Part shown: piece by piece, positions 36,001-39,000 of the stretch | Numbering within the stretch: position 1 is the first letter of the stretch | Layout of the letters: each line of letters starts with the position of its first letter | Assembly (NCBI GenBank): GCA_016706405.1 | Contig: JADJJT010000002.1 | Location: 569,445 to 633,444, forward strand | Reading direction: 5' to 3' | DNA from: Sphingobacteriales bacterium | Lineage (GTDB): Bacteria; Bacteroidota; Bacteroidia; Chitinophagales; UBA2359 | Length of the DNA: 64,000 nt | Program-made: the position numbers

Positions 36001-39000
36001 GCGAAAACTGGAAATTGAGTTTGCTCCTTAACCTGCGAAACCGTATTGCAGAGGAATTAAATAAACATGCTATAAAAGAAAAATACCCAGCTATTGAGTT
36101 TAGCGGGGAAGAACTAATAAAAAGGGTAAGCTACTTAAAAATAAATACGGCTATAAAGCCAGATTTAGAAAATGAAAAAACGGCGTCTATTTTTTCAGGT
36201 GGCGAGTACGCTTCAATTTCTTTAGAACAAATTTTGTCTTTAAAATCGGTTATTGACCAAAAAATAAACGAAATAGCATGAATAAACTTTTAGTACATGG
36301 CAATAACACATCGTTTAACAGGTACGATTTTTTTACAGGAACAGAGCAGTTTGTCTTCGATATTGACATAGATAAAGATGTTGATTTGTATATAAATGAA
36401 ATTTTGGAAATGGAGATTACAGAAGGATTAAAAAAGAGAATAGAAAAAAGCGATATTGTTTTCATTAAAATTGCCTTAACCCAAAACTATTTAGAATATT
36501 TTGGTTTGAGATTAGCCTATCATATAAGGTTAGCTAAAAATTTAGGAGAAAAATCAAAAATACCAATTGTTTTTATTGCCGAAGAAAGTTTTCAATTTTT
36601 AGGCTCAACCTGCCACGAGCCATCAATATTATTTACAAAGGGTATTTATTTAATAAAGGAGACGCTGGAAGATTTAGAAGATATAAAAAACAGGTATGCA
36701 AATGGAAGTATAAAACCATTAGATGGTTATGATTCTTTTATAAATTCCATTTTAATACACCCACCTTCCAACTACAAATCCCATCATTCTATTGCCAACG
36801 AGTGGGCTATTTATCGTTGGGCTACTGCTTTACAAATAAATGACGACCAGATTCGAACCATTGAAAAAACAATAGGCAGCAATCTGTATTTTAAATATTT
36901 ACAATTTAAGTACCCAATTGCAGAGCTTTCTCCAGTTGCAGAAACTACTGAGCCAGCAAATCGGGTTGTTCCGAAAAGAGGTAATGTTTTATATATAGAT
37001 GACGAGGTGAACAAAGGATGGCATAGTATTTTTACAAAAATCTGTTCTGACAGGCTCTTTAAATCTCAATTTGAATCTATTGGGGGTGATTTTAAGAATT
37101 TAAGCAAGGAGGAGATTATCGAAAATTCGTTAGGTATGGTCAAGGGCGATTTCAATCCCGATATTGTTATTTTAGATTTCAGGCTTCATGATGATGATTT
37201 TGAAGATGCAAAATCCTTTGAACCTGCAAGACCCGAAGATGTTACTGGATATAAAATTTTAGTACAGATTAAGGCGTATAATCCTGGTATTCAGGTTATT
37301 GTTTTATCGGCAACAAATAAAATCTGGAATTTTATGGAGTTGCATGCAGCAGGCGCAGATGATTTTATCATAAAAGAATCGCCCGAACTAAGTGTTGATG
37401 AAAATTATAGCAGAAAAGCTATCGATAAAATCTACAAATCTATTGAAAAGGGGCTAACGCGAGCTAAATATTTAAAGCACGCTTTTAATTTTTTGAACGA
37501 ATCGAACGAAATTTTAGAAAACAAAAATATTCCTGATGAGTTAAAAACCACTATTAAAAAACAGCTTGAACTTTCTTATTTTCTTTTATCCCGTGCTGGA
37601 AAAGAGGAGGAGTTTGCCTATGCTTTTGTTGCGTTATACATGATAATCGAGTCAATTAATAAAGAGTTTGTTATAAAATCGTCAAATTACAAATGGATTT
37701 TTAATAATGGCGGTAATGATTTAGACCTTTTGGATTGGGGTTACAAGGAGGAAAATCAAATTTATACCAATACCAATACCCCGGTTACTGGCACTCAACC
37801 GCCAGAATGGCAAAAATTGGCAGGCTTGTATTTTCAAATTTGGAACGGCGAAGATCATGGTTTAATTAGAACGGCATATCATTTAATCAAAAAAAGGAAT
37901 GGTTTTATTCATAATGATAAGAAAATTTTGGATTATCAAGACAATAGAGGTAACTATTTGAATCACGACATATTTACACCCAACGGAACGATTAGTCTGT
38001 TTGAATGTATAGGCGAAATATTTAAATCCATTCAAACCAAAGATACCGCAATAGAAAAAAAGCCGGGAATACAATAAAACTGGTTTAAATATAACTGCAA
38101 CCCTCAAAAGATTGAAGATTGCACATAAGGATATAAACCCGAAGTGTTCAAATATTTATTTATAGTACCAAATTGCATTGGGTTTTTTATACGCCCCCGT
38201 TGGGGTCGAGCCCTTTGTTCATTGGAATTTTTCTATAATAATAAAATCCCTTCGGGGTTGATTAGGCTATATTGGTATATTTTTATCATATAAATATTAT
38301 TTGTTGTGCAGTATCAATTCACAGAACAATCCTAACTTTGCATTTGATTAAAAAAATCCTATGAGCATATTCAACCATTTTAAACATTTAAATCTTAGTC
38401 CCGGTCAAGAGGAGGCGCTAACCAAATTAGCGGCGTTCTTGGAAAGGTCCGGTACAGGTTTTTATGCTAAAAGGGTATGCAGGTAGCGGTAAAACAACCA
38501 TTTTAGCAGGTTTGGTCGAGTACCTCGCTTCTATTGAAAAAGATTTTGCCCTGATGGCACCTACCGGAAGAGCAGCCAAAGTAATAAGGGAAAAAACCGG
38601 GCAGGAGGCTTTTACTATCCACAAATCTATTTACAGCTATGATAATATGATGCCCGTTGAAGAAGGCGATTCTTTTTTTTACTCCTACAAAATCAGGAAT
38701 AATGTAGCGGTGGCTGGAAAAATTTTTATTGTGGACGAAGCTTCTATGTTGTCTGATGTTAAAAGCGAGGGCGAGTTTTTCCGTTTTGGCACCGGGCATT
38801 TATTATCCGATTTGATTAGTTACACCAGAGTTGCCCAGCCAAATGTAAATTCTAAAATTATTTTTGTTGGCGACCCCTGCCAGTTGCCACCCGTAGGCGA
38901 TAACAGCTCAAAAGCCTTTGATGCCAGCTATCTTGAAGAGAAATTTAATCTTGCCTCAGAAGAAACTGAAATGAAAGAAGTGCAAAGGCAGGGCGGCGAT

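Follow-up and report, generated by a model that had tools for sequence, protein, structure and literature searches.

A stretch of 64,000 nucleotides from a Sphingobacteriales bacterium (Bacteroidota; GenBank assembly GCA_016706405.1, contig JADJJT010000002.1, positions 569,445 to 633,444 of the forward strand; hereafter the window) encodes, at 36278-38077 of its plus strand, a protein of 599 amino acids in which a degenerate and a well-conserved receiver domain precede a C-terminal domain that is probably HEPN-like. This protein, called the effector here, is encoded downstream of a gene for a retron-like reverse transcriptase (RT) carrying a HisKin-conflict domain, and a structured non-coding RNA (ncRNA) is predicted immediately in front of the RT gene. 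On balance, we consider it probable that the effector is the output of a retron-like cassette for defence in which signals pass by His-Asp phosphorelay.

The effector belongs to a widespread family. The open reading frame (ORF) and all of the motifs quoted in an earlier note on this DNA, made from the sequence alone, were found at their places in 36278-38077. The start codon of the effector and the stop codon of the gene before it overlap (ATGA), and the same overlap is seen in homologues. At least 818 relatives were found among 5.8 billion proteins, nearly all of them 545-620 amino acids long and annotated with iREC and Response_reg, and a profile of the C-terminal domain retrieved 635 clusters at 50% identity from 1.84 billion cluster representatives. 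Among 185,579 species genomes (one genome per species), 193 effector loci are present, mostly in Bacteroidota, with some in Campylobacterota and other groups. Conservation was read from an alignment of 62 sequences, a broader set of 83 full-length sequences (23% mean identity) and a set of 28 C-terminal sequences (24% mean identity). In the 62-sequence alignment, the invariant residues are G76, H170, N174, E175 and W176 in the N-terminal half; D241, D242, E243, G247, W248, D300, R302, L303, D307, G324, N335, A345, K348, W350, K366 and P369 in the second receiver domain (REC); and, further on, E458 and R540. Across the 83 sequences, D242, G247, W248, D300, N335, G337, K348, K366, E458, R540 and H545 are invariant.

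The residues of the phosphorylation pocket stand out in this list. The earlier note had recognised the hallmarks of a receiver in the middle of the protein, and profile alignment, structural comparison and conservation all agree with it. The acidic pair is in DDE (D241-D242-E243, 36998-37006), the acceptor Asp in ILDFRL (D300, 37175-37177), the strand-4 residue in SAT (S344-A345-T346, where the family consensus has Thr at S344) and the strand-5 Lys in FIIKE (K366, 37373-37375), as part of K366-x-x-P369. D300, the acceptor on which that recognition turned, is present in every one of the 83 sequences, as are D242 and K366, and D241 is conserved in at least 90% of them. The Pfam model Response_reg (PF00072) matches residues 321-368 of the effector with E 6e-6 and 26.9 bits, under its cut-off of 30.2, and it matches 81 of the 83 homologues at E <= 0.1, with a best E of 2.3e-12. 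The low score in the window reflects a divergent N-terminal half of the domain and not a missing domain. NCBIfam models gave weak response-regulator matches only. A profile built from homologues aligns with solved receiver domains and places LD300-x-RL on the strand of the acceptor Asp. In the full-length AlphaFold model (mean predicted local distance difference test score, pLDDT, 88.9; predicted TM-score 0.86), strands and helices alternate over residues 236-365 as in a (beta-alpha)5 flavodoxin-like fold. A Foldseek search with this model returned response regulators only (NtrX, PorX, PleD, CheY and Spo0F), with E down to 7e-6 and TM-scores of 0.7-0.8 against receiver-only chains. Thus the pocket, with acidic pair, acceptor Asp, Ser/Thr and Lys, looks complete, and the domain looks competent for phosphorylation as far as its residues tell. 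Residue 239 (36992-36994), two before the DD pair, is Tyr in the window and Cys in an otherwise identical metagenomic protein (P0001).

A second flavodoxin-like fold had been suspected in the N-terminal part from the string IVFIKIAL, and this part turned out to be a degenerate receiver. The Pfam family iREC (PF22563) matches residues 23-126 with E 2e-18 and 66.8 bits (cut-off 27), and it is found in 74 of the 83 homologues. At the end of strand 3, the iREC consensus (...DIVFIKVSLS...) has no Asp. The segment between the two receivers (residues 130-232) matched no known family; it is helical in the AlphaFold model and holds the best-conserved motif of the protein, the near-invariant PPxNYxSHHSIANEW. 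Its H170, N174, E175 and W176 are those invariant in the 62 sequences, and H170 and N174 are conserved in at least 90% of the 83.

The C-terminal domain had been proposed to be HEPN-like from an RNxxxH motif. The segment AYHLIKKRNGFIHNDKK holds R540 (37895-37897) and H545 (37910-37912), and the motif reads R540-N-G-F-I-H545. The chance expectation of RNxxxH in the effector is about 0.05, and further Rx4-6H strings occur at residues 395 and 557. In one sequence such a motif is weak evidence, and its significance is given by conservation across the aligned sequences. E458, R540 and H545 are the sole invariant columns of the 28-sequence C-terminal alignment (E87, R169 and H174 in its numbering) and the only C-terminal invariants across the 83 full-length relatives, so that the Arg and His in question are retained throughout, together with an acidic residue. 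All of the 80 full-length homologues that were taken from genome contigs have a string R[NSDH]x3-4H within their last 130 residues, and the residue after the motif Arg is Asn in 119 and Ser in 18 of 141 cluster representatives. A separate model of residues 372-599 (228 residues, pLDDT 92.5) begins with the long helix coming from the receiver, followed by two helices, the second of which (443-464) bears E458. A beta-sheet insert and a short helix (465-521) come next and coincide with the part of the alignment richest in gaps; then helix 527-544 ends with R540, H545 opens the following loop, and a long helix closes the domain. HEPN domains have been defined by helix topology and the positions of motifs (PMC3710099), and all sequence-level features of this definition are present here, including the acidic residue in helix 2 (E458) and an insert of low conservation that separates helices 2 and 3. 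Sub-threshold Pfam matches among family members point in the same direction. RiboL-PSP is matched in 4 members (best E 4.6e-6, 27.1 against 28.4 bits), and pEK499_p136, AbiU2, Swt1 and Csm6-HEPN are also matched below threshold, as are MAE_28990, Apea, LA2681 and DUF4145. Because HEPN families make up very little of Pfam, this concentration of weak matches is not a product of chance. When the C-terminal profile was run against the 1.84 billion representatives, only the same family appeared among the 150 matches listed, with no bridge to other HEPN architectures. From the residue pattern and the predicted fold, it is probable, and we hold this with good confidence, that the domain belongs to the HEPN superfamily as a distinct family which no Pfam model captures.

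An RT and/or HisKin-conflict domain is encoded directly upstream of the effector in every locus for which 4.5 kb or more of upstream DNA is available, 67 of 67 (RT in 61, HisKin-conflict in 59), and the gene order of the cassette is conserved across loci. In a set of 84 related loci, the receiver is found in 84, RT and HisKin-conflict each in 68, a WYL-domain regulator in 53 and a small partner of about 227 amino acids, p227, in 49. The earlier note had described the effector as the terminal gene of an RT operon; the RT context holds, and is extended by the HisKin-conflict domain on the RT protein, but the effector is not terminal, as genes for a helicase-TBP and a TPR-S1 protein follow on the same strand. 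The RT protein of the window matches RVT_1 (E 4e-22) and HisKin-conflict (E 8e-62) in Pfam. The best matches of its RT are retron models (PADLOC, E 8e-99; NCBIfam Retron_TIR, 270.8 bits), all of which stay below the curated NCBIfam cut-offs. The HisKin-conflict domain has an invariant His, which corresponds to His555 of the RT protein. Within its RT domain, the window protein has an insertion of about 85 residues (32460-32715, about residues 163-247) that is absent from most homologues; the RT of locus L004 (821 amino acids) is among the few that are likewise long.

Between the RT and effector genes, an intact p227 gene of 227 codons is found in loci L001-L004, and in five loci (L030, L062, L068, L070 and L073) p227 and effector form one in-frame fusion protein, with p227 at the N-terminal end. 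The fused ORFs encode 751-773 amino acids, and a p227 hidden Markov model matches their residues 1-215 with E 1e-25 to 5e-48. These fusions argue for physical cooperation of p227 and the effector. Searches of Pfam, NCBIfam and PHROGs with p227 matched nothing. The idea that p227 is a buffer receiver like DtcB was unsupported, as hhalign revealed no likeness to iREC, REC or the linker.

The ncRNA forms the end of a 480-nt spacer before the RT gene, with 2 nt left between its 3′ end and the RT start codon. The arms of a long-range inverted repeat (31781-31802 and 31950-31971) close a multi-hairpin fold with z = -3.4. The length of the inverted repeat is not significant against shuffles at any single locus, and the informative signal is the conserved repeat sequence (…TTCTTTGAAAGCCTGCTG … CAGCAGGCTTCAAAGAA…), which distant bacteria also have upstream of the RT. 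RNAalifold on a raw MAFFT alignment of the ncRNAs yielded no structure, the helices being out of register. A covariance model was therefore seeded with hand-annotated structure (ten sequences, 21 base pairs) and searched against 73 sources of 1.38 Mb in total. It matched 51 of the 73 (52 matches, all on the plus strand, one locus having two), 41 of these 51 lying outside the seed, and the window ncRNA scored 92 bits (E 4e-15). In the loci compared, the matches lie upstream of the RT, as at 4855-5098 of L001. In the resulting alignment, 93.6% of cells can pair, against 64% in shuffled and at most 53% in slid controls, and compensatory changes are present in 18 of the 21 base pairs. Rfam contains no match to this ncRNA. 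The cassette bears the hallmarks of a retron in sequence terms, since its RT is best matched by retron models and the adjacent ncRNA is closed by an inverted repeat.

In characterised retrons, a toxic effector is held back by the complex of RT and multicopy single-stranded DNA (msDNA) as long as no phage disturbs the complex. How such a phage-induced change in RT-msDNA is converted into activation of the effector is still worked out case by case. For the present cassette, the following order of events can be proposed. In the resting cell, RT with its ncRNA or msDNA would keep the kinase domain quiet. Phage interference with the RT complex would let the kinase autophosphorylate, probably on His555, and the phosphate would pass to D300. 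Phosphorylation of D300 would then dimerise the receiver, and the 38-residue connecting helices would pair two HEPN domains into a composite R/H site. The resulting RNase would cut cellular RNA, so that growth stops and the infection is aborted. p227, and possibly iREC and the linker also, may act as a brake or second sensor, and the helicase-TBP/TPR-S1 pair may be an optional add-on module. A more specific form of the proposal is that the cassette is an unclassified retron type, in which the RT-fused kinase reads the state of RT-ncRNA/msDNA and transfers phosphate from His to Asp on a receiver-gated HEPN RNase, with iREC, the HHSxxNEW linker and p227 as extra checkpoints; this we put forward tentatively, at somewhat below an even chance.

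Several results weigh against the phosphorelay reading. The last 230 residues of the window effector match no Pfam family, and none of the Pfam HEPN models attains its gathering score. Foldseek with the C-terminal model against the PDB and BFVD found nothing significant (E 4.7 for 8xdj_C, the highest-ranking HEPN entry), and profile and single-sequence searches of the PDB with this domain found no HEPN entry. The best PDB sequence match was a TetR-family protein, which was set aside as a chance match. Thus the earlier proposal of a HEPN-like C-terminus stands on its motif, helix order and recurrent weak matches, whereas a significant fold match or a profile match above cut-off was not obtained. 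PADLOC has no system model for RT-HisKin, p227 and effector in combination. For the HisKin-conflict domain, phmmer and profile searches of the PDB and a permissive Pfam scan gave no match to HATPase_c, HisKA or a solved kinase, and its identity as a kinase is carried by the name of the Pfam family alone. In addition, the cassette copy in the window is damaged.

This damage bears on a separate question, whether the gene in the window is a functionless remnant of a decaying locus, to which we give an even chance and which concerns this copy and not the function of the family. The p227 gene is left in three pieces (34530-34724; 34769-34867, frameshifted; 35934-36281) and is interrupted by an insertion sequence (IS) flanked by a perfect 8-bp target duplication, CTAAAAAT (34860-34867 and 35930-35937). 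The minus-strand frames of the IS are zinc-ribbon/HTH/transposase-like, and a second copy, 94% identical, is located at 2407-3627. At 34704-34768, about 69 nt of the p227 gene are replaced by a 65-nt stretch rich in G/C homopolymers, with a palindrome (GGGGGCCCCTGGGGGCCCCCC), which causes a frameshift. This stretch may have arisen by an assembly error, by genuine decay or by a small insertion. The helicase-TBP gene truly starts at ATG 38361, and its first approximately 30 residues are in another frame than ORF 38464-40551. Because of the split p227 gene and the frameshifted helicase gene, the copy is probably disabled, perhaps recently, as judged from its sequence. A related locus, L001 from a Bacteroidia metagenome-assembled genome, has its helicase-TBP gene split by an IS66-family transposase (10182-13863), a second independent IS insertion in the cassette. 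Against a mere remnant, the effector, RT-HisKin and TPR-S1 ORFs are intact in the window and all invariant residues are kept; the perfect target duplication suggests a recent event, and the two frameshifts could be sequencing errors.

As for the family, signalling could do without phosphate. In this case, HisKin-conflict would be a sensor ATPase of the GHKL type, and the receivers would be switches responding to a ligand or nucleotide that gate the HEPN domain. The missing sequence link between HisKin-conflict and canonical kinases fits such a scheme, as do the invariant polar residues that iREC and the linker have of their own. Bacterial Schlafen defence proteins also fuse histidine-kinase-like domains directly to RNase effectors, and the excerpt of the source describing them mentions no receiver for these fusions (PMC13056530). 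However, D242, D300 and K366 have stayed invariant, and D241 nearly so, in 83 distant relatives, which is hard to explain without phosphorylation, and the kinase-like domain has an invariant His and co-occurs with the receiver wherever this can be tested. We therefore regard phosphate-free signalling as unlikely.

Phosphorelay could also operate with inverted polarity. In this scheme, the kinase would stay active constitutively as long as RT-msDNA is intact, and the HEPN domain would be kept inactive by the phosphorylated receiver; a phage that attacks the msDNA or RT would end phosphorylation and so free the RNase. The restraint logic known from retrons in general favours this arrangement, and the strict linkage of three genes fits a toxin held in check. 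The sequence itself is compatible with either polarity, but phosphorylation activates the output in Detocs and in most response regulators with enzymatic outputs, so that we consider the inverted scheme rather improbable. It is equally improbable that the C-terminal domain is a non-nuclease, helical module for dimerisation or for binding protein or nucleic acid, with E/R/H used for binding, and that the protein regulates the RT or the downstream TOTE proteins and does not kill the cell; the missing significant matches to HEPN and the existence of catalytically inactive HEPN-like domains (PMC3710099) speak for it, but the only three residues invariant at 24% identity are the HEPN catalytic set at the expected positions, and the sub-threshold matches concentrate on HEPN families.

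Features of the effector locus, in window coordinates, with the evidence for each.
Feature	Position	Strand	Evidence
WYL/WCX-domain regulator, divergently transcribed	30484..31494	-	Pfam WYL E 7.6e-10, WCX E 1e-6; PADLOC WYL E 2e-23
Retron-like ncRNA (predicted)	31781..31971 (structured 5′ part 31784-31886)	+	inverted repeat, fold, covariance model
Retron-like RT (residues about 65-470) with HisKin-conflict (531-849)	31974..34526	+	Pfam, PADLOC, NCBIfam
p227, disrupted partner gene of about 227 amino acids	34530..36281	+	tblastn with intact L001 homologue
IS element inside p227, roughly 1.06 kb	34868..35929	-	second copy, target duplication, reading frames
Effector, iREC - linker - REC - HEPN-like	36278..38077	+	ORF, Pfam, homologue alignments, AlphaFold model
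iREC, degenerate receiver without acceptor Asp (residues 23-126)	36344..36655	+	Pfam PF22563, homologues, consensus
Helical linker domain (residues about 130-232)	36665..36973	+	conservation, model
REC (residues 235-371): D241/D242, acceptor D300, S344, K366	36980..37390	+	profile, Foldseek, conservation
Long connecting helix from REC to C-terminal domain (residues 377-414)	37406..37519	+	AlphaFold secondary structure, pLDDT >90
HEPN-like domain (residues about 420-591), probable	37535..38050	+	conservation, model, weak Pfam matches
SF1 helicase with C-terminal TBP-TOTE (PDC-M16A), frameshifted near 38450	38361..40551	+	Pfam, PADLOC E 7e-257
TPR - DUF7017 - two S1/CSD-TOTE domains (PDC-M16B)	40541..42040	+	Pfam, PADLOC E 3e-207

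Two further details of the neighbourhood are worth recording. An element of about 85 nt with two GC-rich hairpins (…ATACGNCCC…GGGGTCGA… and AAAAYCCCTTCGGGGTTG) occurs at 31590-31675, before the ncRNA and RT, and at 38180-38262, between the effector and helicase genes. blastn aligns a 33-nt core of the two copies at 91%, and a fuller likeness is seen by eye. Candidate identities for the element are terminator, operator and REP-like repeat. In L001, a DUF3127 gene is located between the effector and helicase genes.

If the proposed phosphorelay is true, the cassette would link retrons directly with two-component signalling, and the principle of Detocs, namely two-component logic in immunity, would extend to retroelements and RNase effectors. 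The receiver would join the short list of sensors that gate HEPN domains (CARF, kinase/KEN and MNT). The cassette offers a defined and mutable signalling path, from His555 through D300 to R540/H545, and the family is sizeable and comes with a new, covarying ncRNA family. In the literature, we found no experimental study and no paper on the RT-HisKin/receiver-HEPN cassette or its ncRNA, the wording of the TOTE-defining review on the C-terminus being unchecked. Since iREC, HisKin-conflict and the TOTE genes are already Pfam families (Aravind group), the operon has been seen computationally before.

Among known systems, Detocs is the closest characterised analogue. Detocs consists of a kinase (DtcA), a buffer receiver (DtcB) and a receiver-effector (DtcC), and both His and Asp are needed (bioRxiv 10.1101/2023.01.24.525353). 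What the two would share is a three-gene cassette with a sensor kinase proposed to act on the receiver of an effector that kills or arrests the cell, a swappable effector domain and a third small protein to modulate the relay. They differ in that the kinase-like domain here is placed on a retron-like RT, whereas the Detocs kinase has TPR sensors, and in the output, HEPN-like here and a PNP ATP nucleosidase in Detocs. Moreover, the present effector has an extra degenerate receiver and a linker, and p227 has no detectable receiver homology. In PADLOC-DB 2.0.0, whose Detocs content is unconfirmed, no family matches the effector and RT-HisKin matches RT models only.

The cassette also resembles type IX retrons, which are linked to HEPN proteins (PMC7736814), in its RT matching retron models, its adjacent ncRNA closed by an inverted repeat and its probable HEPN-type effector. 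However, no described retron type appears to have a kinase fusion or a receiver-gated effector, and the text of the 13-type classification contains neither 'kinase' nor 'response regulator' (PMC7736814). The RT here fails to reach the cut-off of any named retron model, and the ncRNA is not in Rfam. Type XIII, suggested by a match to the PADLOC model RT_XIII, was rejected, as the partners of that type are SWIM/wHTH and HEAT-repeat proteins (PMC7736814).

The TOTE (short for TPR, OB, TBP and Effector) or PDC-M16 systems are represented by the downstream helicase-TBP and TPR-S1/CSD genes, which are clear members. In contrast, the trio of RT-HisKin, p227 and effector is found without this pair in about half of the loci (the helicase-TBP gene and its partner follow in 29 of 61 with enough downstream DNA). 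Because the trio often lacks the TOTE pair, it is a separable module and not a fixed part of TOTE.

Two further comparisons concern the architecture of the effector. PleD likewise has an active and a degenerate receiver in tandem before an enzymatic domain that must dimerise, and it is among the Foldseek matches with more than 400 aligned columns, but at a TM-score of 0.14-0.19; the degenerate receiver comes first here, and the output is HEPN-like in place of GGDEF. In CARF-HEPN proteins (Csm6/Csx1) and kinase-KEN proteins (Ire1 and RNase L), a Rossmann-like or kinase sensor domain precedes a HEPN RNase, and a signal-induced rearrangement of the dimer turns the RNase on. The effector shares with them a sensor domain upstream of a HEPN or HEPN-like domain and differs in that its sensor has a phospho-Asp pocket and is of the CheY-like receiver type, neither CARF nor a protein-kinase fold; also, no cyclic-oligoadenylate machinery is located near the cassette. 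Taken together, the cassette is best described as a variant that combines two-component defence, a retron with a HEPN effector and a sensor-gated HEPN domain.

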